A stretch of 64,000 nt of DNA, taken from Allomuricauda sp. (lineage in GTDB: Bacteria > Bacteroidota > Bacteroidia > Flavobacteriales > Flavobacteriaceae). Location: contig JANQLX010000002.1 of NCBI GenBank assembly GCA_028280385.1, forward strand, positions 249,726 through 313,725, given 5' to 3'. Below are positions 5,478 through 22,456 of the stretch, in pieces; the first letter of the stretch is position 1, and every line of letters begins with the position of its first letter. A program made the position numbers and the translations under genes. The notes beneath the pieces were generated by a model, which was not told the origin of the DNA, searched no databases, and worked only from the letters and a program-made list of their open reading frames with translations.

Positions 5478-6527
5478 TCAACTTTGATTTTTCTTATAAG
5501 CCGATGGAGTAACTCCCTCAAATTTTTTAAAGGCAGTATTAAAGGAAGAAAGGCTATTAAAGCCACAATCAAATGCGATGGCTGAGATAGTGAATTGATT
5601 ACCGGGGTCCTGTAGCAATTTTTTGGCTTCCTCTATTCTGAAATGGTTGATAAAATCGTTAAAGTTCTGTTTGGCATACTGGTTAATTACCTCAGAAGTT
5701 TTTTGGGTGGTGAGCTGTAGTTTTTTACTTAGACTTGCCAGGGAAACATCCGGTTCCAAATACAGTTTGTTTTCTTTTACAAGGCTTGATAATTGATGAA
5801 ACAATTGGGCATGGTCACTTTCCTTAAAAACAGACCCATCCAAATCCGTTATTTTAAGTTGAAAGGCCCTAAAACTCAAATAGTAAATCGCCAACGAATA
5901 CATTATTGGGCCCACTATGTAGGGAACGGTGTCCTCAATAATGTTCAACGCGTAAGAAATCCAAATAACCACAAAACCTATCAATATTAAACTTAGCCAT
6001 TGAAAAATTGCTTTTTGCGATTTCGTCCTTAGTGACTGTGGATGTTTTTTTCCCGCCCCCTTCACAATAGTTGCAGCAATAAAGATGTAGAAGGCCAAAT
6101 GGAGATAGATAGCAATGAGAATGCTTCCAAAAAAGATGATAACCTCTTTGTCGGCGTTTTCGAACCAACTTTCCGCGATAAAAAAACTCAAAACAAAGAC
6201 CAGAATAAAAGGAACAAACTCCCATAGATAATACTTTGGCAATTTGTAATCCACTTGGGTCATTCCGCATACATACCATCGGAGTAAGGGTCCAATCAGC
6301 AAGAGAAAGGCCAAACCTGCAAAGATAAAAACCGGTTCCAGTTCACTGTTAAAATTGAGCAGTACGGATTTCCCTATCCGGAAGGCCATAAAAATGAGAA
6401 TCATGGCCAATAGATAGTTGGGCAGTGTTTTTCTTTTCTTGAAAAAACAGAGATATGTGGCAAAAGTTATTCCGTGCAGCAAGCCTGCAGTACTAAGAAC
6501 AACAAGAAGTATATCAATAAAACCCAA
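5478..6527 (-). CDS. membrane-anchored AraC family transcriptional regulator
   Basis: About 7 TM helices, then ISAIAFDCGFNSLSSFNTAFKKFEGVTPSAY. Confidence 0.92.
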   Translation of the reverse strand: MGFIDILLVVLSTAGLLHGITFATYLCFFKKRKTLPNYLLAMILIFMAFRIGKSVLLNFNSELEPVFIFAGLAFLLLIGPLLRWYVCGMTQVDYKLPKYYLWEFVPFILVFVLSFFIAESWFENADKEVIIFFGSILIAIYLHLAFYIFIAATIVKGAGKKHPQSLRTKSQKAIFQWLSLILIGFVVIWISYALNIIEDTVPYIVGPIMYSLAIYYLSFRAFQLKITDLDGSVFKESDHAQLFHQLSSLVKENKLYLEPDVSLASLSKKLQLTTQKTSEVINQYAKQNFNDFINHFRIEEAKKLLQDPGNQFTISAIAFDCGFNSLSSFNTAFKKFEGVTPSAYKKNQS

Positions 6528-6549
6528 CTACCTATTTTCTCAAATGTAG

Positions 6550-7656
6550 CTATAATTTTCTGCTTTTGGATTCGCACTTTTTCGCAAAGGAAACCATCCC
6601 AACAAGACTTGTAAAATCTCCCATTTCTCCTTTCATAGCGGCAATAATCCCATGTTTTGCTATCAATACCCGGTCTAAAGGCTGCCTTTCTTTTATAACC
6701 ATGGATTCAATCATTTGTTTAGCCGGGGAGCGTCCCATGTCCTTGTATGTGGAAATCACCTTCACTGCATTTTCCTCGGCTGTGATTTCCCGCGGTTTTG
6801 GGGTATAGCCCAACTGCTGGATCATTTGCTCTGCCAAACGCCAGGTAGACCATGGATTTTGTCCCGTGATCAAATTTTGGTCGTGACTTACCTTTTCAAG
6901 ATACATGGCCCCTTCCCTGAATTTGGCCCCTTTTTCTTCTATTTTATCTTGCAATAAAAATGGGAAAACGGTTCTAGCATCCGCTATGAGCAGCAATTCC
7001 TCCTTATTTGTAAAACTGCTTACTTGTTTGTCCCGCAAAAGAGGGCGACCATCATCCAAGGTCACATTGACCAACGCAGCTGGCCCATGACAGACCGCCC
7101 CGATAACTTTGTTGGATTGATAATAATCCTTAACTATTTTTTGAATGACCTGATTATTTGGGAAATCGAACATAGCACCCTTCCCTCCTGCAAAATACAC
7201 GGCCTGATAACCATCTGGGTCAACCTCCTTTAAAGCAATGGTATTTCTTGTTTTGGACTGTGCCACGGGATCATTCAGAAAAGCATAGTCAAATGCACCC
7301 ATATCCTCATCATCAATAACAACAGGGGCTTGTCCTCCTTCAGGACTGGCTATATCCACCTCAAATCCATTGGCCATGAACGTGTAATAGGCCCTTGCCA
7401 ATTCCGTAAGCTCATAACCCGTGGTTTTACCGCTATTGCCCATACTGGCCGTACTGGTAACCACGGCCAATATCTTGCCCCTTTTGGTAATTATATTTTC
7501 AGAAAGGTAGGCAATGTCACCCGCCTTGGTGGATTCAATGTTGATATCCCGTGGCGGAATAAGACTTTTGAACCAAAAACCAAATGAAACGACAACAAGG
7601 ATTACACTGACAATAAAAACAGAAATCCATTTAAGTACCCGATATTTTCTAAACAT
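6550..7656 (-). CDS. DJ-1/PfpI (type 1 glutamine amidotransferase-like) protein with N-terminal anchor
   Basis: TGYELTE, AGGKGAMFDF, GAVCHGPAAL (Cys nucleophile), TGQNP; N-terminal TM segment. Confidence 0.88.
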   Translation of the reverse strand: MFRKYRVLKWISVFIVSVILVVVSFGFWFKSLIPPRDINIESTKAGDIAYLSENIITKRGKILAVVTSTASMGNSGKTTGYELTELARAYYTFMANGFEVDIASPEGGQAPVVIDDEDMGAFDYAFLNDPVAQSKTRNTIALKEVDPDGYQAVYFAGGKGAMFDFPNNQVIQKIVKDYYQSNKVIGAVCHGPAALVNVTLDDGRPLLRDKQVSSFTNKEELLLIADARTVFPFLLQDKIEEKGAKFREGAMYLEKVSHDQNLITGQNPWSTWRLAEQMIQQLGYTPKPREITAEENAVKVISTYKDMGRSPAKQMIESMVIKERQPLDRVLIAKHGIIAAMKGEMGDFTSLVGMVSFAKKCESKSRKL

Positions 7657-7775: not shown

Positions 7776-8807
7776 CTACAAAACCGGCTCCAAGTGCTTC
7801 ATCCTATATTCGTTGGGAGTGCACTGCTCATGTTTCTTGAACACCGAGGAAAAATACTGACTGGTGGTAAAACCACATTGATACGCAATTTCGGTGATGG
7901 TTTTGGCATCGTCTTCCAACAGCATCCTTTTGGACATTTCCAGTCGTCTAAGCATCAGATAACGCATTGGAGTGACGTTGGTGAGCTGCTTGCAGTGATA
8001 GGTAAAACGGGTAACACCCACCCCAGCCGATTGCGACATTTGCTCTATGGTCCAATTCTCTGCCAAACTGTTTTCCAACTCTTTCAAGAAGAAATGTACA
8101 CTTCGGGAACTTTCAGTAAGGGATTCGTTCAATACCACATCGTCGGTATCCACCAAATCGAGAATCAAGATCAAAAGATAATTGACAAGCAATCTAATTT
8201 TTGAGGCATTGCTGCCAGCCTCATCAGTATCCACAGCCTTTCCAATATTGATAAAACAATTACGGACCTCCTTGTTGGTCTTCAGAATGGATTGTTCATT
8301 TTGTCGTAGTATGGTGGTTAACCTATTCAGGTCCTCGGGGGTTAAAGTAACCCATTCTGGCCACTGCCATTCCTGATGTGGTCTGCGAACACCCAAATCC
8401 AAAATGACCCAGTAAAATTTACCCATCCCCACATACGGATTACCCACCTTATGGGCTTCCCAGGGTCGGGTTATGGTGAGATAGTTTGGTTTTAACACCA
8501 CTTCCTTGTTCTCTTGGGCATAGGGCATGCTTCCCGACTCCAAGAAATGGAATTCTATCCCTTCGTTCCTGTGCCAGTCCAATCCCCAGTCCTGTGGTTC
8601 GTGGGCGTCCCAATAGCCAATACTGTTCAATCCCAAGGTATTGTCATCCAATCTTTCACCTGGATAGGTGTGACGTGCCAGCATTTTGGATTTGATCTTG
8701 TTTCTCTTGGCCGCATCAACCAAAGGCAGGCATTTGTCCGCATGGTAAACGATGCCATCTCCCAAATAAGGTTCTATCTCCTGTACATTTTCTTTCATTG
8801 AAACCAC
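7776..8807 (-). CDS. cytoplasmic AraC family transcriptional regulator (cupin-like sensor domain)
   Basis: WHRNEGIEFHFLESG cupin-like segment; C-terminal ITEIAYQCGFTTSQYFSSVFKK. Start may be 8798. Confidence 0.92.
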   Translation of the reverse strand: MVSMKENVQEIEPYLGDGIVYHADKCLPLVDAAKRNKIKSKMLARHTYPGERLDDNTLGLNSIGYWDAHEPQDWGLDWHRNEGIEFHFLESGSMPYAQENKEVVLKPNYLTITRPWEAHKVGNPYVGMGKFYWVILDLGVRRPHQEWQWPEWVTLTPEDLNRLTTILRQNEQSILKTNKEVRNCFINIGKAVDTDEAGSNASKIRLLVNYLLILILDLVDTDDVVLNESLTESSRSVHFFLKELENSLAENWTIEQMSQSAGVGVTRFTYHCKQLTNVTPMRYLMLRRLEMSKRMLLEDDAKTITEIAYQCGFTTSQYFSSVFKKHEQCTPNEYRMKHLEPVL

Positions 8808-8931
8808 ATAAGCAATAAGAGGTGGAAATTAACCATTTCATGGGCCTAATCAAAACCGAATCGCCCACCAACTAAGGGATTTAACTTAAATCGTGGTTTT
8901 TTTAACAATCCTACCAAAGTTCAACCACAGC

Positions 8932-8992
8932 TGTACAAAATATTTCAGTGTTTGATAGTGCACAATTAAAAATCCGCAATTGGCTAACTTTC
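8932..8992 (+). promoter_or_regulatory. conserved promoter/operator block A, shared with 19013-19073
   Basis: TGTACAAAATATTTCAGTG-N6-AGTGCACA-N18-GCTAACTTTC; the last block contains TAACTTTC, a one-mismatch Bacteroidetes -7 element (TAnnTTTG). Confidence 0.7.
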
Positions 8993-9070
8993 CAAGTTGA
9001 AATATCAACTACCGGGCATGCCCTTTGGAGTATCCCAATGTTGAACCCTTACACAAACGAAACAACCAAA

Positions 9071-12055
9071 ATGACATTAAGAAAAAAAACGATTTCCCTA
9101 TTTAGCCTTGCACTTACCGTATTGCTATTAATTTCAAGTTGTTCCAACAAAACTGACCAAAATAAAAGACCTTTGGAAACTTGGGTTTTTAGATCGGTTT
9201 TGGACAAAAAACCAAGAATGGTAACGGCTGCATTGCATGAAAACATGTGGCTGGCCTATGACACCCAAGATGGAACCTTGTACAAAGCATGGAAAGGCGG
9301 GGTAAATTTCGATGGAGCGGTCTATACCACCAAGCATGGCCCCCAGCCCACCAGTTTGGGATATGCCTATTTATCGGATAGTGAGCAATGGGCCCTTTCC
9401 AAAAATGGTGAAAGGACTGAAGCCAAAATGCAATATAAAGGGCATAAATTTACCAATGGCAATGTAAGTTTTACCTATTTGCTGCTAACTCCTGAAGGTG
9501 ATAACATTGAAGTAGTAGAGACACCAACCTATATCTCTGAAGGTGGGAAAAGTGGGCTTCAGCGTAGTTTTGAGGTCACCAATACCACCGACTACCAGGT
9601 AGTTTTGGAAACCGTGGTTTCCTCCCTGCAAAATGAAACCGATTATACAACCACCGGTTCCTTTACTGATATTACCAAGGAAGAAATCCAATTTGAGGAT
9701 GGTGAAATCCTTCAGATCCGGGGAAGTTTGGTATTAACCGAACCCACAACAACCTTCAGTGCCTACTTTCACCCAGGTTTTGATAAACTGGAGCAGAACA
9801 GCAATGAGCTGGCCTTGGAGGAAAACACCAAAAAAATGTCATTGGGCGCAAGACTGATCGAGGGAAGTGATTGTAAAGCCTGTCACAATGAAGAGGTGAA
9901 AACGGTAGGACCTTCTTATATGTCCATTGCCGAAAAATATCCCATGAACGAGGCTACCATCAAATCGCTTTCAGAGAAGATAAAACTTGGTGGAAATGGA
10001 GTTTGGGGAGAAGCAATGATGACCGCCCACCCTGACCTCCCAGATGCCGATGTGGAGGAAATGGTGAAATACATCTTGGCGCTGGACACCGATTCCGATG
10101 ATGAAGAAAATGAACAACCCAAGGAATTTACATTGGACACAGAATCCATCCCACTGGATTTTAAAGAGAGTATCAAACCACAATCCGGAAACGGCTTGGT
10201 GGCACACTTGTTTTTGGTTGGGGATGAGGACAATGATAGTAAAGCAGCCAATAAAACCATAGCCAGCAATGTACACGTCCTCAGGGCTGACGATTTTGGT
10301 GGTATCAATTCCAATTTTAAACTGGTTATCAAAGGGCAAATTGCCATTCCAGAGACTGGCAGCTACGACTTTAGATTGATGAGCGATGATGGATCCTACT
10401 TGTTTTTGGATGAAGAACTTGTAATTGACAATGGTGGTTTCCATGCCGTAAAGGCCGTAGACGGGGAAATGTACTTGAAGAAGGGAGTCCATGAACTCAG
10501 AATTGAGTTTGAACAAGGAGGTGGAGGTGCCGGATTGTCGTTCCAGTGGTTCAACAAGGCCAATGAGAAATTCGAGCTATTGCCCAACGAAATGTTGACC
10601 TATACCGAAGCACATTTTTCTGAGACCACTCCATACGTACCGCCAAAGTCAGCGGATGAAATGGATAAGGAACTTAGAAAGCCCGGCGATAAAAAACCAT
10701 TGGAAGATGTGCATCCTTCCTTTACCTTATACCAAGCCAGACCAGATGATTTTAAACCCCGTGTAGGTGGAATGGACTTTAAATCGGACAGCACCTTGAT
10801 CCTTAGTACTTGGGATGCGGAAGGTTCGGTCTATGCCATTAAAAACTACCTCTCAGGAGACCCAAAGGCCATTACGGTAAACAGAATAGCTTCTGGTTTG
10901 GCGGAACCCTTGGGTGTTAAGGTGGTAGATGATGAGATTTATGTGCTCCAAAAACAGGAACTCACCAAATTGATTGATCACGATGGAGATGAACTCATTG
11001 ATGAATACCAGGTGGTCAGCAACAAATGGAAGGTGTCCGACAATTTCCATGAGTTCGCCTTTGGACTGGAATATAACGAAGGCCATTTTTATGCTACTTT
11101 GGCCACGGCAATCCTGCCGGGTGGTGCCAGCGCATCCCCGCAGATTCCTGATCGTGGCAAAACAATTAAGATCAGTAAGGAAAATGGCGATTTGGAATTT
11201 GTTGCCCACGGGCTTCGAACCCCAAATGGTATTGGATTCAACAAGGAAAAAGAGCTTTTTGTGGCCGATAATCAAGGGGATTGGTTGCCATCCTCCAAAA
11301 TTGTACATATCCAAAATGGGGAATTCTATGGTTCCCGCTCCGTGGATCCAGAAGGTACCGCAGACCTGGTTGAAAAACTACCACTGGTATGGCTGCCCCA
11401 AGATGAAATTGGAAACTCTCCCAGCGAACCCACTTATTTGGATGTTGGTCCATATAAAGGACAATTGATCCATGGCGAGGTGACCCATGGTGGGATAAAA
11501 CGTGTGGCCTACGAAGACGTTGGCGGTCAATTGCAAGGGGCCGTGTTTAGGTTTACCCAAGGTATTGAGGCCGGGGTCAACCGAATTCGATGGGCGCCCG
11601 ATGGTTCCCTGGTTATTGGAGGTATCGGGGTTTCTGGAAACTGGTTGCACTATGGCAAGCTTAACTATGGATTGCAACGGATGGTATACAATGGGGAGAC
11701 AACTTTTGAGATGTTGAAAATCACCTCTAAATCGGATGGTTTTGCAATAGATTTTACAGCACCTTTGGCCAATGAAGTGGATACCTCCAAGGTATTGGAA
11801 GTGGAACAATGGTATTACCTGCCCACCGAGGCCTACGGAGGGCCAAAACTCGATCATAAAAAACTAAGCAGTCGGGTAATCAAAATATCGGATGATAGAA
11901 AGCGACTGTTTGTTTCGGTGGATGGCCTTAAAGAAAACCATGTGGTCTATTTCCACCTTAATCCAACATTGAAGAGCGATTCCGGTCAAGAACTTTGGAC
12001 CACTGAAGCCTGGTATACCCAAAACAAAATATCGGAGAATAGCCTTCTTGAATAA
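9071..12055 (+). CDS. large lipoprotein: cytochrome c + PA14 + glucose/sorbosone dehydrogenase-like beta-propeller
   Basis: Lipobox LLLISSC; heme motif CKACH with distal Met (MMTAHP); PA14 motif FRLMSDDGS; propeller segments GLRTPNGIG and ADNQGDW. ATG 9071 preferred over GTG 8948, which lies inside the promoter block. Confidence 0.85.
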   Translation: MTLRKKTISLFSLALTVLLLISSCSNKTDQNKRPLETWVFRSVLDKKPRMVTAALHENMWLAYDTQDGTLYKAWKGGVNFDGAVYTTKHGPQPTSLGYAYLSDSEQWALSKNGERTEAKMQYKGHKFTNGNVSFTYLLLTPEGDNIEVVETPTYISEGGKSGLQRSFEVTNTTDYQVVLETVVSSLQNETDYTTTGSFTDITKEEIQFEDGEILQIRGSLVLTEPTTTFSAYFHPGFDKLEQNSNELALEENTKKMSLGARLIEGSDCKACHNEEVKTVGPSYMSIAEKYPMNEATIKSLSEKIKLGGNGVWGEAMMTAHPDLPDADVEEMVKYILALDTDSDDEENEQPKEFTLDTESIPLDFKESIKPQSGNGLVAHLFLVGDEDNDSKAANKTIASNVHVLRADDFGGINSNFKLVIKGQIAIPETGSYDFRLMSDDGSYLFLDEELVIDNGGFHAVKAVDGEMYLKKGVHELRIEFEQGGGGAGLSFQWFNKANEKFELLPNEMLTYTEAHFSETTPYVPPKSADEMDKELRKPGDKKPLEDVHPSFTLYQARPDDFKPRVGGMDFKSDSTLILSTWDAEGSVYAIKNYLSGDPKAITVNRIASGLAEPLGVKVVDDEIYVLQKQELTKLIDHDGDELIDEYQVVSNKWKVSDNFHEFAFGLEYNEGHFYATLATAILPGGASASPQIPDRGKTIKISKENGDLEFVAHGLRTPNGIGFNKEKELFVADNQGDWLPSSKIVHIQNGEFYGSRSVDPEGTADLVEKLPLVWLPQDEIGNSPSEPTYLDVGPYKGQLIHGEVTHGGIKRVAYEDVGGQLQGAVFRFTQGIEAGVNRIRWAPDGSLVIGGIGVSGNWLHYGKLNYGLQRMVYNGETTFEMLKITSKSDGFAIDFTAPLANEVDTSKVLEVEQWYYLPTEAYGGPKLDHKKLSSRVIKISDDRKRLFVSVDGLKENHVVYFHLNPTLKSDSGQELWTTEAWYTQNKISENSLLE

Positions 12056-12149
12056 TGGTATACAAAATGTATACAGGAGAGAGAAATAAGATGAATAGGA
12101 ATTAAATTGGCGGGGACGTCAAGGCAACTTTAAACAATTGAAATAGCCC

Positions 12150-12536
12150 ATGGGAAATCAAAACAAACCATCCTCACGACAGAAAATCGTCAATATTGTT
12201 TTGTTCTTGTTGTTTGCGGCTTTTGCCATCGTACAATTGAACGACAAAGACGGTTTTATTTGGTTCTCCATTTATGGCGTTGTGGGACTGGTACATCTAT
12301 ATGCCATCTTCAAACCACTTAAGCCAAGTGTTTTGCTGTTATTTCTAATTGGCTTGGCCATATATGCTGCTATGCATGCCTCCTATTTTCTGGACTGGCT
12401 TCAAGTACAGAACAAATCCGAACTTTTTGGTGAAATGGTCTACGAAAAACCATACCTTGAAGGTACCCGGGAATTTTTGGGCTTGGTCATAGCTTTGGTT
12501 TCCATGGTCTATCAATGGAGGCAATCCAAAAAATGA
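12150..12536 (+). CDS. transmembrane 220 (TMEM220) family protein
   Basis: FAIVQLNDKDGFIWFSIYG and E..RE..GL motifs; 4 TM segments. Confidence 0.75.
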   Translation: MGNQNKPSSRQKIVNIVLFLLFAAFAIVQLNDKDGFIWFSIYGVVGLVHLYAIFKPLKPSVLLLFLIGLAIYAAMHASYFLDWLQVQNKSELFGEMVYEKPYLEGTREFLGLVIALVSMVYQWRQSKK

Positions 12537-12574
12537 AAAGAAATCTATACTAAAAGTAATGTGGGAAGGATAAA

Positions 12575-13381
12575 ATGGGAGATAGAAAGTTAGATTTTAC
12601 CAAGTGCGTTGTAGGCAAAATGTCTCCTGAAGAGCAAGATTGGCTGAACGTAAAAATGGCTGCCGTTAAAGAGAGTGCAAGGAGATTTCCCATTTTCTTT
12701 AGCCAAGCCTCACGTTTTATTGCCAATGATGTCCCGGAGTGGAATACGGACGAAATCCAAACGTTAGAGAACATTTACCCGGGATTTGGAAGCACGGATT
12801 GGACCAAAAGGAACTTGGCAAGAACAATTCTAATATGCGCTTTGGATACCAATTCGGATATTCAGGTTTTACGTGTTTTTTTCGAAATTGCAGAGATGAA
12901 CGAACTGGTGGCCCTCTACAAAGGTTTGTTCCTGTTGGATAACGCGGCCGATTTCTCTTCCCAGGTAAAAGAGGGGGTCCGTACCAATATGGTCAACGTA
13001 TTTGATGCCATTTGTCTTGGGAATCCCTTTGCAGCGGCTTATCTTGAAGACCCGGCATGGAACCAACTGGTCTTAAAAGCCATTTTTATGGAAAGACCTT
13101 TGTATAAAATCCAAAATATAGACCAACGAAGAAATAAGGAATTGGCAGATATGCTCCAAGATTACATCCAGGAGCGCTGGGCGGCAAAGCGTACAGTTTC
13201 TCCTGAGGTCTGGCGACTTGTACATCAGTACTTACGGGAAGATGTCAAGCAGTTGATTTTGGAAAAAGAACTTGAAGTTTTGGAAAAAAGTGCCATAGAA
13301 ACCATTTTGGATTCAAATGCAACTGTAGGAGAGGAATTTTGGAACAACATAGGAAAAATGAACGAAATAAATTTAAACTAA
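12575..13381 (+). CDS. eboA: EboA domain protein
   Basis: GVRTNMVNVFDAI...NPFAA...WNQLVLKAIF...YIQERWAAKR.VSPEVWR; first gene of the ebo cassette. Confidence 0.88.
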   Translation: MGDRKLDFTKCVVGKMSPEEQDWLNVKMAAVKESARRFPIFFSQASRFIANDVPEWNTDEIQTLENIYPGFGSTDWTKRNLARTILICALDTNSDIQVLRVFFEIAEMNELVALYKGLFLLDNAADFSSQVKEGVRTNMVNVFDAICLGNPFAAAYLEDPAWNQLVLKAIFMERPLYKIQNIDQRRNKELADMLQDYIQERWAAKRTVSPEVWRLVHQYLREDVKQLILEKELEVLEKSAIETILDSNATVGEEFWNNIGKMNEINLN

Positions 13382-14286
13382 TGCACTATATAGACCCCCA
13401 TATACATATGGTCTCAAGGACCACGGACGATTATGAAGCGATGAGGGAAGCCGGTATTGTGGCGGTGATCGAACCTGCGTTTTGGTTGGGACAACCACGG
13501 ACCACCGTGGGATCCTTCAAGGATTACTTTAGCATGCTGGTTGGATGGGAACGCTTTAGGGCTTCGCAATTTGGAATCAAGCATTATTGCACCATTGGAT
13601 TGAATTCCAAGGAAGCGAACAATGAGGAGTTGGCCGAACAGGTCATGGAAATCCTGCCCCAATTTTTAGCCAAGGAAGGTGTTGTGGCCGTTGGTGAAAT
13701 AGGATATGACGATCAATCCGAAGCAGAGGACAAATACTTTAGGCTACAGCTGGAACTCGCAAAGGAATTTGAACTTCCCGTTATGATCCATACCCCGCAT
13801 CGCGACAAGAAAAATGGAACCCTAAGAAGCATGGATGTCATCCAGGAACACGGCATTCCAGAACATATGGTGGTGATTGACCATAACAATGAAGAAACCG
13901 TAAAACATGTACTCGACAGGGGCTTTTGGGCAGCATTCACCATCTATCCCAAAACCAAAATGAGCAAAATGAGAATGGTGAACATAGTGAACACCTATGG
14001 GTCTGAAAAGATCATCGTGGACAGTTCTGCGGATTGGGGTGTAAGTGACCCATTGTCTGTTCCCAGAACAGCGGCAATCATGAGAGAACATGGAATCGCG
14101 GAACATCACATTCACCTGACTTGTTATCAAAATGCCATAACGGTTTACGGGCAAAGTGGACAGTTCAATGAATCTGATTGGAAACAGGACCATCTGGTAA
14201 AGCAAGCTGATCTACACCAAGGGAACAGTGTGCTTAGGGGGCAGGAAGCCAAGGAGATTAACTTCAAAAACAGTATCGGGGATTAA
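13381..14286 (+). CDS. eboB: TatD family hydrolase EboB
   Basis: ATG overlaps the eboA TAA (TAATG); DPHIHM, VGEIGYD, HTPH, DSSADWG motifs. Confidence 0.9.
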   Translation: MHYIDPHIHMVSRTTDDYEAMREAGIVAVIEPAFWLGQPRTTVGSFKDYFSMLVGWERFRASQFGIKHYCTIGLNSKEANNEELAEQVMEILPQFLAKEGVVAVGEIGYDDQSEAEDKYFRLQLELAKEFELPVMIHTPHRDKKNGTLRSMDVIQEHGIPEHMVVIDHNNEETVKHVLDRGFWAAFTIYPKTKMSKMRMVNIVNTYGSEKIIVDSSADWGVSDPLSVPRTAAIMREHGIAEHHIHLTCYQNAITVYGQSGQFNESDWKQDHLVKQADLHQGNSVLRGQEAKEINFKNSIGD

Positions 14287-14289
14287 TCC

Positions 14290-15180
14290 ATGCAATGGTC
14301 CGGGTATATACAGCTGATCAGGCCTGCCAATATTGTTACGGCCATAGCGGATATCATTGCGGGAGTGGCCATAGCTGGCGTGATTACCCTTGATGTTTGG
14401 AATCAGAACGTACTATTGGATGTATGCCTGCTGATCATTTCCACCAGTTGCCTATATGGCGGTGGAATTGTTTTCAATGATGTTTTCGATATTGAAGAGG
14501 ACAAAATCCATAGGCCGGAAAGAGTTATTCCTTCAGGCAGGGTCAGTCTTCAACAAGCTTCGCGGTTTGGGTCCTTACTTTTTATCATTGGCATCCTGGC
14601 TGCCTTTGGCGTGTCCATTTTAAGTGGCGGAATAGCTGCGAGTATTGCACTTTTGGCCTTGCTCTATGATAAATACAGCAAACATCATACAGTTTTGGGG
14701 CCACTGAATATGGGTGCATGCAGGGGTGCCAACCTGGTGCTGGGCATGAGTATACTGCAACCCGTTCCCTCCCATTTTTTATGGATTGGATTGCTCCCCG
14801 TCATCTTTGTTGCCGCCATCACCCTGACAGCACAAAAAGAAAGCCAAGGAAAGAACAAAAGAGCCATAGCGGTTGCCATGCTCTTGGACACAACCATAGT
14901 AGTAGGTCTTCTATTATTAAGCCGATACTTTAACTTTTCATTAAAATCGGCTGCCATATTTATAGTACTTTGGTATGGGGTTAATTTTTTGGCCAAGTTC
15001 AAAGCAATTCGACATAATGATCCCAAAATCATTAAAAAAGCGGTAAAGACAGGTGTTTTGTCCCTTATACCGCTAAATGCAAGTTATGTGGCTGGTTTTG
15101 GTTCTGTTTACTTCGGACTGGCCACCCTTTGCCTGTTGCCATTATCCATATACCTGGCCAAGAGATTTGCGGTGACCTAA
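14290..15180 (+). CDS. eboC: UbiA-like prenyltransferase EboC
   Basis: Asp-rich NDVFDIEEDKIHRPER.IPSG, second motif YD...K, GACRGANL; multi-TM. Confidence 0.92.
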   Translation: MQWSGYIQLIRPANIVTAIADIIAGVAIAGVITLDVWNQNVLLDVCLLIISTSCLYGGGIVFNDVFDIEEDKIHRPERVIPSGRVSLQQASRFGSLLFIIGILAAFGVSILSGGIAASIALLALLYDKYSKHHTVLGPLNMGACRGANLVLGMSILQPVPSHFLWIGLLPVIFVAAITLTAQKESQGKNKRAIAVAMLLDTTIVVGLLLLSRYFNFSLKSAAIFIVLWYGVNFLAKFKAIRHNDPKIIKKAVKTGVLSLIPLNASYVAGFGSVYFGLATLCLLPLSIYLAKRFAVT

Positions 15181-15186
15181 TTTGTT

Positions 15187-16362
15187 ATGCGGAAAGAAAT
15201 TATGAAAAAGGAAAGAATCATAGAGCAGAAGTTTCAAGTGAATTTTCAATTTAACGTGTTGTTCACCCACAACATTTTTGATGTTGAAAATTCCATTTTA
15301 CAGCAACTGCTGTCGGAAAATGCATTGAACACCAGCAAGGCCCTTGTTGTGGTGGATGGGGGTGTCAAGGAAGCACACCCCATGTTGTTGACAGCTATTA
15401 AAGATTACTTCAAACATTACAATAAATCCATTGCCCTGCAAGGTGAAATATTGATAGTTCCCGGTGGGGAACCCGCCAAAAATGATGAAACCTTGATCAA
15501 GTCCATTTTGGATAAGATAAACCAATTTGGGATTGACAGGCATTCCTATGTCATCGCCATAGGCGGAGGTGCAGTTTTGGATGCTGTAGGCTTTGCCGCG
15601 GCCATTGCACATCGCGGGGTTAGGCACATTCGGATTCCCACTACGGTTTTGTCCCAAAACGATTCCGGAATTGGGGTTAAAAATGGCATCAACACCTACG
15701 GCAAGAAGAACTTTACCGGTAGCTTCGCCAGCCCTTATGCCGTTGTTAATGATGCTACCTTTCTCACCACTTTGGACGACAGGGATTGGAGAGCGGGAAT
15801 AGCGGAGGCGGTTAAAGTGGCACTGATCAAGGATGCGGAGTTCTTCGAGTGGCTTGAATCGGAGTCTGAGGCTTTGGCCAATCGGAATATGGAGGTAATG
15901 GATGAGCTTATCTATCGTTGCGCGGATTTACACATGCAACACATCCGTACTTCCGGGGATGCCTTTGAACAAGGGTCATCCAGACCTCTGGATTTTGGAC
16001 ATTGGGCAGCACATAAACTGGAACAATTGACCAATTTTTCAGTACGCCATGGGGAAGCGGTAGCCATCGGAATTGGGTTGGACAGTGCCTATTCCCATTT
16101 AAAAGGATATTTAGATCAACCATCCTTAGATCGCATTTTGAATCTGATGGCCAAATTAGGATTTGATTTGTACCACCCACAATTATCGGAGCAGGTCATC
16201 CAGGGACTGGAAGAATTTAGGGAGCACCTGGGCGGGCAACTTACCATTATGCTGTTGGATGCCATAGGCCATGGTTTCGAAGTCCATGAAATGGACGAGG
16301 AAGTGGTCTTGGAGGCCATGAAATATATAAAACAGTACAGTGCGGAAAAACTCGAGGTGTAA
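15187..16362 (+). CDS. eboD: 3-dehydroquinate synthase-like sugar-phosphate cyclase EboD
   Basis: GGGAVLDAVG, IPTTVLSQNDSGIGVKNG, DFGHWAAHKLE, HGEAVAIG. Confidence 0.92.
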   Translation: MRKEIMKKERIIEQKFQVNFQFNVLFTHNIFDVENSILQQLLSENALNTSKALVVVDGGVKEAHPMLLTAIKDYFKHYNKSIALQGEILIVPGGEPAKNDETLIKSILDKINQFGIDRHSYVIAIGGGAVLDAVGFAAAIAHRGVRHIRIPTTVLSQNDSGIGVKNGINTYGKKNFTGSFASPYAVVNDATFLTTLDDRDWRAGIAEAVKVALIKDAEFFEWLESESEALANRNMEVMDELIYRCADLHMQHIRTSGDAFEQGSSRPLDFGHWAAHKLEQLTNFSVRHGEAVAIGIGLDSAYSHLKGYLDQPSLDRILNLMAKLGFDLYHPQLSEQVIQGLEEFREHLGGQLTIMLLDAIGHGFEVHEMDEEVVLEAMKYIKQYSAEKLEV

Positions 16363-17573
16363 TGCAAATTGAACACAATGCCCATTTAACGTACTGTACG
16401 AATATCCATCCTGGGGAAAGTTGGGAAGAAGTTTTTGCCAGTTTACAAACCTATGGCCTACAGATAAAAAAGAAGGTTGCCAACAATCAAGCTTTCGGTT
16501 TAGGATTACGTTTATCCCGACGAAGCGCGGAAGAATTGATTCAAGGAAAGCATTTGGACCAGTTCAAGTCCTGGTTGGAAACCCATAATTTATATGTGTT
16601 TACCATGAATGGATTCCCTTATGGGGATTTTCATCATGTGGCAGTTAAAGACCAGGTCCATACCCCTGATTGGACTACCGCAGACCGGGTGGTGTACACC
16701 AAAAGTCTTGTGAAAATTCTGGCCCATCTGCTTCCAGAAGGTATGGAAGGAGGGATTTCCACCTCGCCCCTCTCCTATAAATATTGGTTCAATTCCGAAG
16801 AACAAATTGAAGAGGTTAAAAGCAAAGCTGCCTTATCCCTGATCGCTGTGGTTGAAGAACTGGTCCAGGTTAAAAACCAATTGGGAAAAACCATCCACAT
16901 TGATATTGAACCGGAACCGGACGGAGTTTTGGAAAACACCCAAGAGGTCATTTCCTTTTATCAGGACCATTTGCTCAAAAAAGGAGTAGAGGCGTTGCAG
17001 GAAAAACTTAAATGTTCCCAATCCGAAGCACGGGAGCATATTTTGGAGCATCTTCAAGTGTGTTATGATGTCTGCCATTTTTCATTGGCCTATGAAGAGC
17101 CAAAGGAGGTAATGGCACAATTTCAGGAACACGGAATCAAGGTCGGAAAAATACAGATCAGTGCCGCGCTTAAAAGTAGGCGCTCACCAAATGTTTCCAT
17201 CAAAGAACAGCAAGATTGCCTGCAACAGTTTGATGAACCTGTATACCTGCACCAAGCGGTGGTACAGAAAAAGGACGGCACGCTAGACCATTATCCCGAT
17301 CTTCAGGAGGGCATAACGGCTATGGAAGATGAAAATTTTCAGGAACTCCGGGCACATTTCCACATCCCCATTTTTATTCCGGAGTTTCAGGTATTGGAAT
17401 CTACCCAAAATGATATTATCAAGGCCATGGACCTTTGGAAAGAAGTTCCCTATAGCGGCCATCTGGAGGTTGAAACCTATACCTGGACCATTTTACCAGA
17501 GCATTTGCAAACAGACATAACAAGTTCCATCGTAAGGGAATTGCAATGGGTCTTGAACCAATTGGAAGCATAA
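16362..17573 (+). CDS. eboE: xylose-isomerase-like TIM barrel EboE
   Basis: LTYCTNIHPGESW, TMNGFPYGDFH...VK, EPEPDG, CYDVCH, HLEVETYTW; ATG overlaps the eboD TAA. Confidence 0.92.
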   Translation: MQIEHNAHLTYCTNIHPGESWEEVFASLQTYGLQIKKKVANNQAFGLGLRLSRRSAEELIQGKHLDQFKSWLETHNLYVFTMNGFPYGDFHHVAVKDQVHTPDWTTADRVVYTKSLVKILAHLLPEGMEGGISTSPLSYKYWFNSEEQIEEVKSKAALSLIAVVEELVQVKNQLGKTIHIDIEPEPDGVLENTQEVISFYQDHLLKKGVEALQEKLKCSQSEAREHILEHLQVCYDVCHFSLAYEEPKEVMAQFQEHGIKVGKIQISAALKSRRSPNVSIKEQQDCLQQFDEPVYLHQAVVQKKDGTLDHYPDLQEGITAMEDENFQELRAHFHIPIFIPEFQVLESTQNDIIKAMDLWKEVPYSGHLEVETYTWTILPEHLQTDITSSIVRELQWVLNQLEA

Positions 17574-17586
17574 ATAGGAGAAGCAC

Positions 17587-18960
17587 ATGAAGCAAACCGT
17601 GGTCATCAATGTTGTAGGACTCTCTTCTTCCCTACTCCAACATGAAGATTTGTTTTTGACGCAATGGATTAAAAACAAACAGTTATCCAGAATAAAGCCT
17701 GTACTTCCGGCGGTTACCTGCTCTGCCCAGTCCACCTATCTGACTGGAAAACTCCCAAATGAACACGGCATAGTGGCCAATGGCTGGTATTTTAAGGATG
17801 AAAGTGAGGTCAAACTTTGGAGGCAATCCAACCACTTGGTACAAGCCCCGAAGATTTGGGATATGGCCAAGGAGAAAAATTCGGATTTTACCTGCTCCAA
17901 TATGTTCTGGTGGTATAATATGTATTCCAATTCCGATTTTAATGTGACCCCAAGACCCCAGTACAGGGCAGATGGACAAAAGATTCCCGATTGCTATTCC
18001 AAACCTGCGGAACTACGGGATAAATTACAAAAAGAACTGGGAACCTTCCCCCTGTTCAATTTTTGGGGGCCAACAGCCAATATCAAGTCCACCCAATGGA
18101 TAGCCAATGCTTCAAAATTGGTACATTCCTGGCATGAACCCACCTTACAACTCATTTACTTGCCCCATTTGGATTACGTGCTTCAAAAACATAATGACCC
18201 TGCCATTATTCTCCAAAATTTACTTGAATTGGACGTGGTTTTGGAAGACCTTATCGGGTTTTACGAGGCCAAAGGGATTGATCCCATCGTACTTTCAGAA
18301 TATGGCATCGCCCCGGTAAAGGGGCCCATCCACATCAACCAACTGTTACGGGAAAATGGGTATATACAAGTCCGGGAAGAAAATGGATTGGAGATTTTGG
18401 ATGCCGGTGCCAGTGACGCCTTCGCCATGGCCGATCATCAAATTGCCCATGTTTATGTAAATACCAAACATAAAGTGGAGGAAGTAAAAAAACTGCTTGA
18501 AAATTGTCCAGAAATAGACCTGGTTCTGGATGCTGATAGCAAAATGGATTATCATTTAGATCATGAACGATCGGGTGACTTGGTAGCGGTTTCTAAAAAA
18601 GACTACTGGTTTACCTATTATTATTGGTTGGATGACGTCAAAGCACCAGATTTTGCCCGAACCGTGGATATCCATAAAAAACCAGGATACGACCCAGTGG
18701 AAATGTTCACTGATCCCAAGAAAAAATTGATGCTGGCCCGAATTGGATGGAAACTGTTGAAGAAGAAGCTTGGATTCAGGGGCTTGTTCAACGTAATTCC
18801 CCTTGATGCCCATTTGATTCAGGGATCCCATGGGGCCATCAACATCCCGGAAGCATATTATCCAGTTTTGATACACGCCAATGAAGGAGAGGCTCCAAAC
18901 GATGAAATTGTCGCACCTACGGATGTATGTGCCTATATTTTAAAGCAGGTATTTGGCTGA
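17587..18960 (+). CDS. eboF: alkaline phosphatase/nucleotide pyrophosphatase family protein EboF
   Basis: VINVVGL, PAVTCSAQSTYLTG (Thr nucleophile), YLPHLDY, SEYG, GYDP, GSHG. Confidence 0.9.
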   Translation: MKQTVVINVVGLSSSLLQHEDLFLTQWIKNKQLSRIKPVLPAVTCSAQSTYLTGKLPNEHGIVANGWYFKDESEVKLWRQSNHLVQAPKIWDMAKEKNSDFTCSNMFWWYNMYSNSDFNVTPRPQYRADGQKIPDCYSKPAELRDKLQKELGTFPLFNFWGPTANIKSTQWIANASKLVHSWHEPTLQLIYLPHLDYVLQKHNDPAIILQNLLELDVVLEDLIGFYEAKGIDPIVLSEYGIAPVKGPIHINQLLRENGYIQVREENGLEILDAGASDAFAMADHQIAHVYVNTKHKVEEVKKLLENCPEIDLVLDADSKMDYHLDHERSGDLVAVSKKDYWFTYYYWLDDVKAPDFARTVDIHKKPGYDPVEMFTDPKKKLMLARIGWKLLKKKLGFRGLFNVIPLDAHLIQGSHGAINIPEAYYPVLIHANEGEAPNDEIVAPTDVCAYILKQVFG

Positions 18961-19012
18961 CCAGACTACCCAAAATTTTACTGTTAGTACCCTTTTTGGG
19001 TTTCTAACGGCT

Positions 19013-19073
19013 TGTATAAAATATTTCAATGACCGGAAGTACACAGCAGAAAGCTTATAAATAGCTAACTTTC
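19013..19073 (+). promoter_or_regulatory. conserved promoter/operator block B, shared with 8932-8992
   Basis: TGTATAAAATATTTCAATG-N6-AGTACACA-N18-GCTAACTTTC, 32 bp before ATG 19106. Confidence 0.7.
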
Positions 19074-19105: not shown

Positions 19106-22100
19106 ATGAATGTAACAAAATTTGTGGTTGCACTTCTTGTGCTCCTTTGCGCGATTTCCTGTGGTAAAAAACAAAAAGAAATATTGGTGTTTAGCAAAAC
19201 TGCTGGCTTTAGGCACGGTTCTATTGAAGCTGGAATTGCAGCGCTGCAAAAATTAGGGACAGAGCACGACTTTAAAGTTGTGGCCACGGAAGATGCATCC
19301 TACATCGTGGAGGATTCCTTGAAAAATTATGATGCCGTTGTCTTTTTGAATACCACGGGCGACATCTTAAATGCGGTTCAAGAGGCCGATTTTGAACGTT
19401 ACATGCAAGCAGGGGGCGGTTTTGTGGGTATTCATGCCGCAACTGATACCGAGTACGATTGGCCATGGTACAACAAAATGGTGGGGGCCTACTTTATGGG
19501 GCATCCGGCAGTGCAGCCCGCTACCTTAAATGTTATTGACCGCACCCATCCAAGCACCAAAATGTTGGATAGCACTTGGGTCAAGGAGGATGAGTGGTAC
19601 AATTTCAAAAACATCAACACCGATGTCAATGTGTTGATCAATATTGATGAAAGTAGCTATGAAGGAGGCGAGAATGGGGAGAACCACCCCATTTCCTGGT
19701 ATCATGAACATGATGGCGGAAGGGCTTTTTACACGGCCATGGGCCACACTGATGAAACATTTACTGACGAGACTTTTTTAAAGCACCTCATGGGCGGAAT
19801 AGATTACGCCACAGGTGGCGGTTCGTTGGATTACAGCAAGGCCAAGACGGAAAGAGTGCCTCTTGAGAACAGGTTTACCAAAACAATCCTTGATTTTAAC
19901 CTGGATGAGCCCATGGAGTTGGAAGAACTTCCAGGAAGGGGGATTCTATTTATTGAACGGCGCGGAAGTCTTAAATTGTACGACTTCAAAACGGCAACCA
20001 CCAAGGTAATTGCCAAATTGGACCTGTTTTATGGCAACGAGGATGGCCTTTTGGGATTGGCAGTGGACCCCAATTACGAAAAGAACAACTGGATCTATCT
20101 CTTTTATTCATCCGAGGAAAAGGTGGAGCAACATGTTTCCCGCTTTACCCTTAAAGATGATGTGCTGGACTTGGATTCCGAAAAAATCCTGCTTGAGATT
20201 CCACTGATACGCGAGTGTTGCCACAGTGGTGGCGGCTTGGAATTTGGACCCAATGGAAATTTATTCATTGGTTTAGGAGACAACACCAATCCTTTTGAAT
20301 CCCAAGGGTTTGCGCCAATTGACGAGCAAGAAGGAAGGGCACTTTGGGATGCCCAAAAATCCGCTGCCAACACCAACGATCTACGCGGTAAAATCCTACG
20401 GATAAAACCGGAGGATGATGGCACCTATTCCATTCCAGAAGGGAACCTCTTTCCAGAAGGAACGCCCAATACCCGACCTGAAATCTACGTAATGGGCTGC
20501 CGGAACCCGTTCCGGTTCCATATTGATTCCAAAACTGGATATGTGTATTGGGGCGATGTTGGTCCCGATTCCGGTAAGGACGATCCCAACCGTGGGCCCA
20601 AAGGGATGGGTGAATTTGACCAGGCCAGAAAGGCTGGCTTTTGGGGATGGCCCTATACCCGTGGCAATAACCAGCAGTACAACGATTACGATTTTTCAAA
20701 GGAAGAATCTGGACCAAAGTTTGATCCCAACCGTTTGATCAATGATTCCCCAAACAATACGGGAATACAGGAGTTGCCACCAGCACAGGAATCCTTGATT
20801 TGGTATTCTTATGACCGTTCGGAAGAGTTTCCCTGGTTAGGAGAAGGTGGGGTAAACCCAATGGCAGGTGTGGTGTACCACTCCACAGATTATCCCAATG
20901 CCACCGAAAGTACTTTCCCCAAATATTTTGAGAACAAACTGTTTGTTTACGAATGGATGCGGGATTGGATCTATGTGGTTACCTTGGATGAAGACCAGAA
21001 CTATGTAAAAGCCGACCCCTTTATGCCCAGCACCGAGTTTTCGCACCCCATGGATATGATCTTTGGTTCGGACGGGAAGATGTATATGCTGGAATACGGT
21101 CAAAAATGGAACTCCAGAAATTTGGACGCCCGTTTAAGCCAAATATCTTACATAGAAGGTAACCTAAAACCTGTAGCACAGATCACCTCCAATACAGGAA
21201 TTGGGGCCGCTCCCCTATCCGTGGAATTTTCAGGTTCGTCTTCCATTGATTATGATGGGGATGCACTAAGCTACGAATGGTCCTTTTCCAATAGTTCGCA
21301 AGTTGAGTCCACCGAGGAATCTCCCGTTCACACCTTTCAGGAAGCCGGGTTGTACAATGTACGGCTAAAGGTAACCGACCCTTTTGGCAACAGTGATGTG
21401 ACCAACACCAAGATTTTGGTGGGCAATACCGCTCCAGAGCTTCAAATTCAGATTGAGCCCAAGGACTCTATGTATTTCAACAACAAAAAAGTCACCTATA
21501 AGGTGGTGGTAAATGATGCGGAAGATGGAAATTCGGAAACTGGCAGTATTCCAGCAGACCAGATCAAGGTGACCTTTAGCTATATACCCGAAGGTGAGGA
21601 CATGATCAAGGCCACTTTGGGGCACCAACAAAATGTGATTCCCGAAGGGAAACAACTTATGGATGCCACTGATTGTGCGGCCTGTCATGCTGTGGATGTA
21701 AAAGTTAACGGGCCCAGCTATACGGAAGTTGCCGAGAAATATACCTCTGATGACCGTAATTATCTCATAGATCGGGTCAAAAAAGGAGGTTCTGGGGTTT
21801 GGGGCGAATCCTTGATGTCTGCCCACCCACAATTGGATATTGAGGAAATCGGGAAGATGGTGGACTACATCCTTTCCCTTGTTCCTGATGAAAAAGTGGA
21901 GGAAACCTTGTTGCCACTTTCAGGCACCGTACGCTTTAGGGAACACATGCAAGGTGACAGCGGCGGAAAATATGTGTTGATGGCCTCCTATTTGGATCAA
22001 GGCAATGAGAAGGTCCCTAATTCTCAGCTGGCCACAAGTTCGCAGGTGATTTTCACAACTTCCAAATTGGAAGCGGAAGCAGCTGACGAACTCAGTGATG

Positions 22101-22456
22101 ACGTTGGGGAATGGGAAGCCGGAGGTGCGGAGCTGATCGGATCCATCACCCACGACAGTTTTATCGGTTTTGAAGACATTCATCTGGTTGGCCTAAAAAG
22201 CATCAGTTTTTCGGCCTTCTATATTGGCGGCTACAACTATAAGGGCGTTTTGGAGATTCGCGAAGATTCCCCAGAAGGTCCGGTTATCGGTAGTGTGGCC
22301 CTAGGGTACTACCACGAGTCGGATGAAGGTTTTAGGAGTTACGAAATTCCCGTGAAACCCACCGAGGAACAAAGTGCGCTTTATCTGGTCTTTAAAAATC
22401 CTGTGGATGAAAAACAATTTGTGGCCAATGCCAATTGGATCATTTTAAATTACTGA
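19106..22456 (+). CDS. lipoprotein: ThuA-like + GSDH (PQQ-type) propeller + PKD + cytochrome c + CBM6-like
   Basis: Lipobox LCAISC; ThuA ILVFSKTAGFRHGSI and YTAMGH; GSDH HSGGGLEFGP and GCRNPFR; PKD GLYNVRLKVTD; heme CAACH; C-terminal CBM6-like sandwich. Confidence 0.88.
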   Translation: MNVTKFVVALLVLLCAISCGKKQKEILVFSKTAGFRHGSIEAGIAALQKLGTEHDFKVVATEDASYIVEDSLKNYDAVVFLNTTGDILNAVQEADFERYMQAGGGFVGIHAATDTEYDWPWYNKMVGAYFMGHPAVQPATLNVIDRTHPSTKMLDSTWVKEDEWYNFKNINTDVNVLINIDESSYEGGENGENHPISWYHEHDGGRAFYTAMGHTDETFTDETFLKHLMGGIDYATGGGSLDYSKAKTERVPLENRFTKTILDFNLDEPMELEELPGRGILFIERRGSLKLYDFKTATTKVIAKLDLFYGNEDGLLGLAVDPNYEKNNWIYLFYSSEEKVEQHVSRFTLKDDVLDLDSEKILLEIPLIRECCHSGGGLEFGPNGNLFIGLGDNTNPFESQGFAPIDEQEGRALWDAQKSAANTNDLRGKILRIKPEDDGTYSIPEGNLFPEGTPNTRPEIYVMGCRNPFRFHIDSKTGYVYWGDVGPDSGKDDPNRGPKGMGEFDQARKAGFWGWPYTRGNNQQYNDYDFSKEESGPKFDPNRLINDSPNNTGIQELPPAQESLIWYSYDRSEEFPWLGEGGVNPMAGVVYHSTDYPNATESTFPKYFENKLFVYEWMRDWIYVVTLDEDQNYVKADPFMPSTEFSHPMDMIFGSDGKMYMLEYGQKWNSRNLDARLSQISYIEGNLKPVAQITSNTGIGAAPLSVEFSGSSSIDYDGDALSYEWSFSNSSQVESTEESPVHTFQEAGLYNVRLKVTDPFGNSDVTNTKILVGNTAPELQIQIEPKDSMYFNNKKVTYKVVVNDAEDGNSETGSIPADQIKVTFSYIPEGEDMIKATLGHQQNVIPEGKQLMDATDCAACHAVDVKVNGPSYTEVAEKYTSDDRNYLIDRVKKGGSGVWGESLMSAHPQLDIEEIGKMVDYILSLVPDEKVEETLLPLSGTVRFREHMQGDSGGKYVLMASYLDQGNEKVPNSQLATSSQVIFTTSKLEAEAADELSDDVGEWEAGGAELIGSITHDSFIGFEDIHLVGLKSISFSAFYIGGYNYKGVLEIREDSPEGPVIGSVALGYYHESDEGFRSYEIPVKPTEEQSALYLVFKNPVDEKQFVANANWIILNY

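Follow-up and report, generated by a model that had tools for sequence, protein, structure and literature searches.

A palindromic operator candidate shared by an AraC-family regulator gene and two cytochrome c lipoprotein genes around an ebo cluster in Flavobacteriaceae

We analyzed a stretch of 64,000 nucleotides from Allomuricauda sp. (family Flavobacteriaceae; GenBank assembly GCA_028280385.1, contig JANQLX010000002.1, positions 249,726 to 313,725 of the forward strand), which is referred to below as the window. The window contains a TMEM220-like gene followed by the genes eboA-F, and this group lies between two genes encoding lipoproteins with cytochrome c domains. A gene encoding an AraC-family regulator is divergent from the first of the two. 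A preliminary description of this DNA had noted that both lipoprotein genes are preceded by similar 61-bp stretches made up of three blocks (A, B, and C, in the direction of the genes), and had read these stretches as promoters controlled by the AraC regulator. We found that blocks A and B form a single palindrome, which is probably the operator of the regulator, and that block C resembles the -7 box of a sigma-A promoter. The main features of the locus, with positions counted in the window, are the following.

7776-8798, minus strand: gene for the AraC-family regulator, 340 amino acids (aa), with a C-terminal double helix-turn-helix and a possible cupin-like domain at the N-terminus
8782-8814, no strand assigned: putative operator 3, centered on the AraC start codon, ATG 8798 (minus strand)
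8932-8964, plus strand: putative operator 1, TGTACAAAATATTTCA-G-TGTTTGATAGTGCACA, comprising blocks A and B; predicted position -65 to -33
8985-8992, plus strand: -7 box of promoter 1, TAACTTTC, beginning 20 bp after operator 1; predicted transcription start at about 8997
9071-12055, plus strand: target gene 1, a lipoprotein with PA14, cytochrome c, and a weak DUF7133 match (Pfam)
12150-18960, plus strand: TMEM220-like gene (12150-12536), then eboA-F (Pfam)
19013-19045, plus strand: putative operator 2, TGTATAAAATATTTCA-A-TGACCGGAAGTACACA; predicted position -65 to -33
19066-19073, plus strand: -7 box of promoter 2, TAACTTTC, at the same 20-bp spacing; predicted transcription start at about 19078
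19106-22456, plus strand: target gene 2, a lipoprotein with ThuA, pyrroloquinoline quinone (PQQ)-type glucose/sorbosone dehydrogenase (GSDH), PKD, cytochrome c, and CBM6 domains (Pfam)

The two stretches, 8932-8992 and 19013-19073, were found letter for letter as described. A search of the window for the three-block pattern, allowing up to three mismatches, returned two matches, both at these places, and 100 dinucleotide-preserving shuffles, which served as the chance control, returned none. Block A (up to two mismatches) was found in only two copies in the whole 4.12-Mb genome. The two stretches are identical at 41 of 61 positions, and these positions are clustered in the blocks, while the flanks and spacers are unrelated. 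The Pfam domains of target genes 1 and 2 agreed with the earlier statement that each site precedes a cytochrome c/dehydrogenase lipoprotein gene.

The preliminary description had also proposed to scan this and related genomes with the motif. A scan of the relatives using block A alone at three mismatches matched 60 of 61 genomes with high control counts and was thus too noisy, and it was replaced by an orthologue-anchored comparison and by a palindromic pattern. The same blocks were found to recur at orthologous loci and in about 37 genera. The promoters of the ThuA-dehydrogenase gene (target gene 2) in F. flava (G022, 89% protein identity) and F. spongiicola (G030, 68%) have the same blocks and the same spacing, and the rest has diverged. 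Operator 2 is conserved upstream of the ThuA-GSDH orthologue in both of these genomes and at a further locus (L069). The resemblance between the two sites might be explained as the relic of a promoter duplication that accompanied gene gain, with no present function at one or both sites. The two sites share an identical GCTAACTTTC, a detail beyond the family consensus, and the locus has been rearranged among close relatives: the PA14 gene is absent in F. flava, and the F. spongiicola locus lacks ebo. We nevertheless find a relic scarcely credible, because nothing of the spacer sequences has been retained, in contrast to the blocks and the distances between them, which have been kept both at orthologous sites (68-89% protein identity) and at unrelated target genes across genera.

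The three blocks had been described as separate elements. This held for block C, but blocks A and B were found to be the arms of one 33-bp imperfect palindrome. Its consensus, TGTttaAatt.tTTCA-N-TGAAa.aatTtaaACA, was obtained from 80 loci encoding AraC orthologues (63-90% identity) in at least 16 named genera, among them Wocania, Winogradskyella, Flavivirga, Mariniflexile, Algibacter, Tamlana, Seonamhaeicola, Formosa, Snuella, Jejuia, and Flavicella. The palindrome was present in all 80 loci. It was centered on the AraC start codon in 72 of them and was located directly 3' of the AraC stop codon, at the head of the next gene, in 68. Within each 16-bp half-site, two boxes are conserved, TGT..A and TTTCA, with a spacing of about one turn of the helix. 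Judging from the MarA/AraC family, this arrangement would fit the two helix-turn-helix units of one AraC-type monomer. We also considered blocks A and B as elements recognized by an alternative sigma factor of the extracytoplasmic function (ECF) type. This was rejected, since the 33-mer is dyad-symmetric, occurs in either orientation, and is always accompanied by a sigma-A-type -7 box.

A weight matrix was built only from sites outside Flagellimonas and applied to the 4.12-Mb genome, with the reversed genome as the control. The top three matches in the genome were all located at this locus, namely operator 2 at 19013 (score 23.3), operator 1 at 8932 (22.7), and operator 3 at 8782 (21.2). The next-best match outside the locus scored 13.2, and the maximum of the reversed-genome control was 17.0. 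The two halves of the operators differed in strength. All three have a strong distal half of 18-19 bits and a weak proximal half of 4-6 bits, compared with about 22.6 and 20.9 bits in other genera; in operator 1 the distal half scored 17.8 bits and the promoter-proximal half 4.0 bits. Further operators in this genome were sought before the TMEM220-like gene, after the AraC stop codon, and after target gene 2, and none was found there (best scores below -10).

The C-terminal double helix-turn-helix of the regulator was confirmed by matches of residues 258-335 to the Pfam families HTH_18 (8.5e-20; 71.3 bits, cut-off 33.6) and HTH_AraC (1.1e-18). Its sequence matches in the PDB were AraC-type domains, including those of XylR, Rns, MarA, and AraC. 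The N-terminus matched Cupin_2 at 1.9e-5 with 24.8 bits, which is under the gathering score of 27.2, and the PDB sequence search gave no match over the N-terminal 200 residues. We placed the start of the gene at ATG 8798 rather than at GTG 8807, the start of the longest open reading frame (ORF); the alignments with orthologues begin at M4 of that frame. ATG 8798 is the exact center of operator 3, which is a probable autoregulatory site of the AraC gene. The function of operator 3 is less secure here than in other genera, because its strong half coincides with AraC coding sequence (M-K-E-N-V-Q), its non-coding half is degenerate, and no -7 box was found 20 bp beyond it. We also looked upstream of the AraC operator for a conserved -7 box that could belong to the promoter of the AraC gene itself, and no preferred position was found. 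On the 3' side of the AraC gene, the minus strand carries a DJ-1/PfpI-family gene (6550-7656) and a second AraC-type gene (5478-6527), which together occupy 5478-7656 of the window.

The distribution of the motif was compared with that of the regulator in 301 Flavobacteriaceae genera. An AraC orthologue was found in 38 of them. With one genome per genus, a sampling that reduces but does not remove the phylogenetic dependence of the counts, the motif was present in 37 of the 38 AraC-positive genera versus 19 of the 263 AraC-negative genera (Fisher's exact p = 4e-32). All zero-mismatch matches were in AraC-positive genomes, beside the AraC gene. The sole AraC-positive genome without the motif (G110) has only a 45%-identical AraC homologue. 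This genome carries an ebo cluster of the common type, and its AraC homologue may be a paralogous regulator with a different site. Within the genus of the source genome, 3 of 41 genomes have an AraC orthologue, and the same three have the motif upstream of a close ThuA-GSDH orthologue. In F. spongiicola, where ebo is missing from the locus, the AraC and ThuA genes are direct neighbors on opposite strands and diverge from the operator. The palindromic pattern matched all three at the AraC locus and 2 of the other 38 genomes, each with a single one-mismatch match, which is the level of the control pattern.

The preliminary description had named the divergent AraC as the most likely reader of the motif. 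The co-occurrence, together with the position of the motif on the AraC start codon in most loci, suggests that this protein is indeed the best candidate. If the whole locus were transferred horizontally, the gene and its sites would travel as one; the co-occurrence thus speaks for a functional unit and is by itself no proof of binding. The palindrome might instead be bound by another dimeric factor encoded elsewhere, with the AraC gene as one of its targets. A 33-bp palindrome of the perfect type is more typical of regulator families other than AraC, and it is co-occurrence and site position that point to AraC. We consider such a factor very unlikely, since the motif tracks the presence and absence of AraC in the 301 genera and in the 41 genomes of the genus, and since a double helix-turn-helix protein would suit half-sites whose two boxes are spaced by one turn. 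Moreover, AraC is the only gene that all 80 loci have in common. The DJ-1/PfpI gene and the second AraC-type gene are kept only in Flagellimonas loci (5 of 80) and are thus not a constant partner of the operator.

In sigma-A promoters of Bacteroidetes, the -7 box is preceded at a distance of about 19-20 bp by TTTG, the -33 element. Block C, TAACTTTC at both promoters, agrees with TAnnTTTG at 5 of the 6 specified bases. Its description as a Bacteroidetes -7 element at a fixed distance was borne out across genera, where the TA of the box lies 20 bp past the palindrome in 141 of 176 cases. For this count, a -7-like box was defined as TAnnTT. and such a box occurs at 17-22 bp in only 4.9% of random windows. 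The flavobacterial -7 box TAnnTTTG spans -12 to -5 (PMC9723704), so with the 20-bp spacing the operator would span about -65 to -33. The position expected for the TTTG of the -33 element reads CACA, which belongs to the operator arm, at both promoters. As the preliminary description had proposed, the upstream element thus appears to occupy the place of the -33 element and to replace it, which would fit dependence on an activator. The -7 boxes of the regulon mostly end in C and not G (TAATTTTC 35 times, TATTTTTC 19 times, TAACTTTC 3 times), a sub-optimal form, TAAnTTTC, in which C replaces the consensus G. The operator ends at a fixed phase, at the predicted position -33, and abuts or overlaps the upstream promoter element, which is the geometry of class II-like promoters. 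A scan for sigma-70-type promoters and terminators, which was not designed for Bacteroidetes promoters, found nothing above the level of shuffles.

The same operator and the same AraC protein could also act in repression, with the protein blocking polymerase at the upstream promoter until a ligand releases it. The operator covers the -33 position, and the site on the AraC start codon resembles a repressing, autoregulatory position. However, the rigid 20-bp spacing, the sub-optimal -7 boxes ending in C, and the missing -33 element are typical of promoters that need an activator, and this combination suggests activation rather than repression. Repressor sites are more often found across the -7 box or the transcription start, and AraC-family proteins are mostly activators. 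Repression is thus an unlikely explanation of the design.

The position of promoter 1 bears on the start of target gene 1, for which 9038 or 9071 had been suggested in place of 8948. GTG 8948 lies inside the operator and upstream of the predicted transcription start, and ATG 9071 is conserved; we therefore place the start at 9071. CCAAAATGACATT and the subsequent lipoprotein signal peptide are conserved in two related loci (L066 and L067). The start at 9038 was discarded, as the equivalent frame in these two loci contains stop codons.

To describe the putative regulon, we counted the first genes behind units of operator plus -7 box in the 80 loci and the window. These genes encoded a xylose-isomerase-like TIM barrel with a twin-arginine translocation (TAT) signal (56), a GMC oxidoreductase divergent from AraC (52), an MFS transporter (16), and a TonB-dependent receptor (12). 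The PA14-cytochrome c gene and the ThuA-dehydrogenase-cytochrome c gene were each counted 3 times, TMEM220 3 times (plus 4 others with the operator directly upstream), and a DUF7133-cytochrome c protein twice. The first four kinds of gene are the usual candidate targets outside Flagellimonas. Within Flagellimonas, the regulator would act on the two cytochrome-c-fused dehydrogenase genes and, in F. flava, on TMEM220-ebo without an intervening gene. The theme of the regulon would be the periplasmic oxidation and uptake of sugars and glycosides. This common theme suggests that the ligand of the regulator is probably such a compound.

In several genera (G239, G336, and G072), a second pair of operators was observed. 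Its members are about 730-770 bp apart, have arms ending in ACTGNACA, and flank a 174-aa ORF. One such pair (L148, located at G239:C1:267527-268328) adjoins genes of 630 and 652 aa, one of which is PA14/cytochrome-c-like. The genes of the second pair represent further members of the putative regulon, located 25-50 kb from the AraC gene.

The identity of the ebo cluster was supported by the Pfam order of the genes at 13339-18960, which is TatD-like, UbiA-like, DHQ-synthase-like, xylose-isomerase-like TIM barrel, and phosphodiesterase/alkaline phosphatase family. The position of eboA (12575-13381) gave no Pfam match, as expected for an uncharacterised protein. The six genes are co-oriented, and their order was also found in G134 and G239 (Snuella sedimenti). 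The preliminary description had placed the cluster between the two sites as bracketed by the regulon. It is bracketed by them, but it probably also belongs to the regulon itself, as is suggested by F. flava and two other Flagellimonas genomes (L068-L070). There, the operator on the AraC start lies directly upstream of TMEM220, and eboA-F come next in L068 and L070; in L069, TMEM220 is followed by the ThuA-dehydrogenase gene instead of ebo. In the source genome, L066, and L067, AraC and TMEM220 are separated by the PA14-cytochrome c gene, which has an operator of its own. The 94 bp that precede the TMEM220-like gene (12056-12149) contain neither an operator (best matrix score -17.7) nor a terminator-like hairpin. 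Read-through from promoter 1 into TMEM220-eboA-F is therefore plausible. In G134 and G239, TMEM220-eboA-F are co-oriented downstream of an operator-controlled GMC oxidoreductase operon.

Two further observations were made around the TMEM220-like gene. Within the gap, the palindromic hexamer GTATAC occurs twice at 12062-12078 (GTATAC-AAAAT-GTATAC); the matrix did not recognize it as an operator, and no role for it is apparent. In 18 of the 80 loci, with or without ebo, a gene for a TMEM220-like protein lies no more than 6 kb from the AraC orthologue. In Mariniflexile and Tamlana, TMEM220 stands alone behind the operator, directly upstream of the AraC gene and co-oriented with it.

A general co-occurrence of ebo and AraC across genera was not found. 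The ebo cluster was present in 53 of the 301 genera, and only 4 of the 38 AraC-positive genera had it. As judged from the compared genomes, the link between ebo and AraC is confined to one ebo subtype. The EboE protein of the window is 90% identical to that of F. flava, about 50% identical to those of 14 other Flagellimonas species, and 59-62% identical to those of three other genera. In two of these three genera (G134 and G239), the cluster is located beside an AraC locus. This divergent subtype was always found behind a TMEM220-like gene. These observations suggest that this ebo subtype moved horizontally along with the AraC locus.

We favor, with a probability of roughly 80%, the explanation that the shared motif is the operator of the adjacent AraC regulator joined to a sigma-A promoter, and that the bound regulator activates. 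In this model, an AraC dimer would bind the 33-bp inverted repeat with one monomer per 16-bp half. The operator, which ends 20 bp before the weak -7 box, would stand in for the -33 element. Bound AraC would most likely recruit or activate RNA polymerase in a class II-like manner, in response to a ligand derived from a sugar or glycoside. It would turn on target genes 1 and 2 and would probably drive co-transcription of TMEM220-eboA-F by read-through from promoter 1. Operator 3, on the AraC start codon, would provide autoregulation.

Several points weigh against this explanation. AraC-family dimers use direct repeats more usually than inverted repeats. The two inner boxes are only 6 bp apart from center to center, so that the inner recognition units would approach the helix from nearly opposite sides. 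The second half is weak in all three operators of this genome (4-6 bits versus about 21 bits in other genera), and the strong half of operator 3 could owe its conservation to being coding sequence. A site spanning -65 to -33 would also be usable by a repressor. As for ebo, the cluster in the window has no operator of its own, and in G134 and G239 it lies 283 and 473 bp behind the preceding gene. These gaps indicate that ebo may have a separate promoter.

The ebo genes have been reported as determinants of thallusin biosynthesis, whose last oxidative step was left unassigned (2026 preprint, 10.64898/2026.05.21.724671), and earlier work linked ebo to the export of a scytonemin precursor (PMC6282210). 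Neither of these two sources reports a regulator of ebo. It is conceivable, although we regard it as a long shot, that AraC and its operator form a sugar-responsive switch for a divergent, horizontally mobile subtype of the thallusin-type ebo pathway and that the co-controlled, cytochrome-c-fused periplasmic dehydrogenases act on the ebo product, for example in the oxidation of saccharoquinoline to thallusin. If true, this would give the pathway its first regulatory input and its first accessory enzymes.

Operator-level regulation in Flavobacteriaceae is poorly charted, and little has been described on activators at Bacteroidetes -33/-7 promoters. The locus yields a precise promoter design, in which a 20-bp spacer separates a 33-bp palindrome from a weak -7 box, together with a candidate for the cognate regulator. 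The putative regulon extends over about 37 genera of marine flavobacteria, and its genes encode transporters, cytochrome-c fusion proteins, and enzymes that oxidise sugars in the periplasm. In Flagellimonas, the predicted switch touches ebo, which is linked to the algal morphogen thallusin and for which no regulator has been reported, so the locus offers a handle on the timing of expression of the cluster.

In the literature searched, we found no AraC regulator of ebo or GMC oxidoreductase loci, no flavobacterial palindromic regulon, and no record of this regulator or motif. The regulon is new and well supported, and its proposed design, an autoregulated AraC-type activator with an operator beside the promoter, is well known. 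Among the few operator-level regulons described in marine flavobacteria is that of AusR, a GntR-type repressor of the alginate regulon of Zobellia galactanivorans, which likewise has a conserved site near the sigma-A promoter boxes (PMC7641319). AusR differs from the regulator proposed here in that it belongs to another protein family, is a repressor, and has another motif and other target genes (PMC7641319). The ebo cluster of the window has the same six genes in the same order as the known cluster, and it differs in being a divergent subtype preceded by a TMEM220-like gene. Compared with the Bacteroidetes sigma-A promoter, block C is like the -7 box (5 of 6 bases), and the differences are CACA for the -33 TTTG and a final C for G.

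The closest parallels are found among AraC-family activators of Escherichia coli and Pseudomonas. AraC at araBAD (araI1-araI2) and XylS at Pm combine a double helix-turn-helix, as is present in the regulator described here, with a ligand and dimerisation domain, for which its N-terminal part is a candidate. Their sites abut or overlap the upstream promoter element and reach to about -70, and the regulators are autoregulated. The strong araI1 and weak araI2 half-sites resemble the strong distal and weak proximal halves of the three operators of this genome. Unlike at araBAD and Pm, the half-sites here are inverted and not direct, and the promoter is of the Bacteroidetes -33/-7 type and not of the -35/-10 type. 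In further contrast to AraC and XylS, no distant looping site was seen, and for the N-terminal domain no sequence relative with a solved structure could be detected. RhaS and RhaR of E. coli are AraC-family activators with inverted-repeat half-sites that end next to the upstream promoter element, as they do here. The 17-bp half-sites of RhaS are 16 bp apart, whereas those of the 33-bp site described here are separated by a single base. The compact inverted repeat is thus closer to RhaS than to AraC, and it is this repeat, together with the Bacteroidetes -33/-7 promoter and a target set of its own, that sets the regulon apart from the known AraC/XylS designs.

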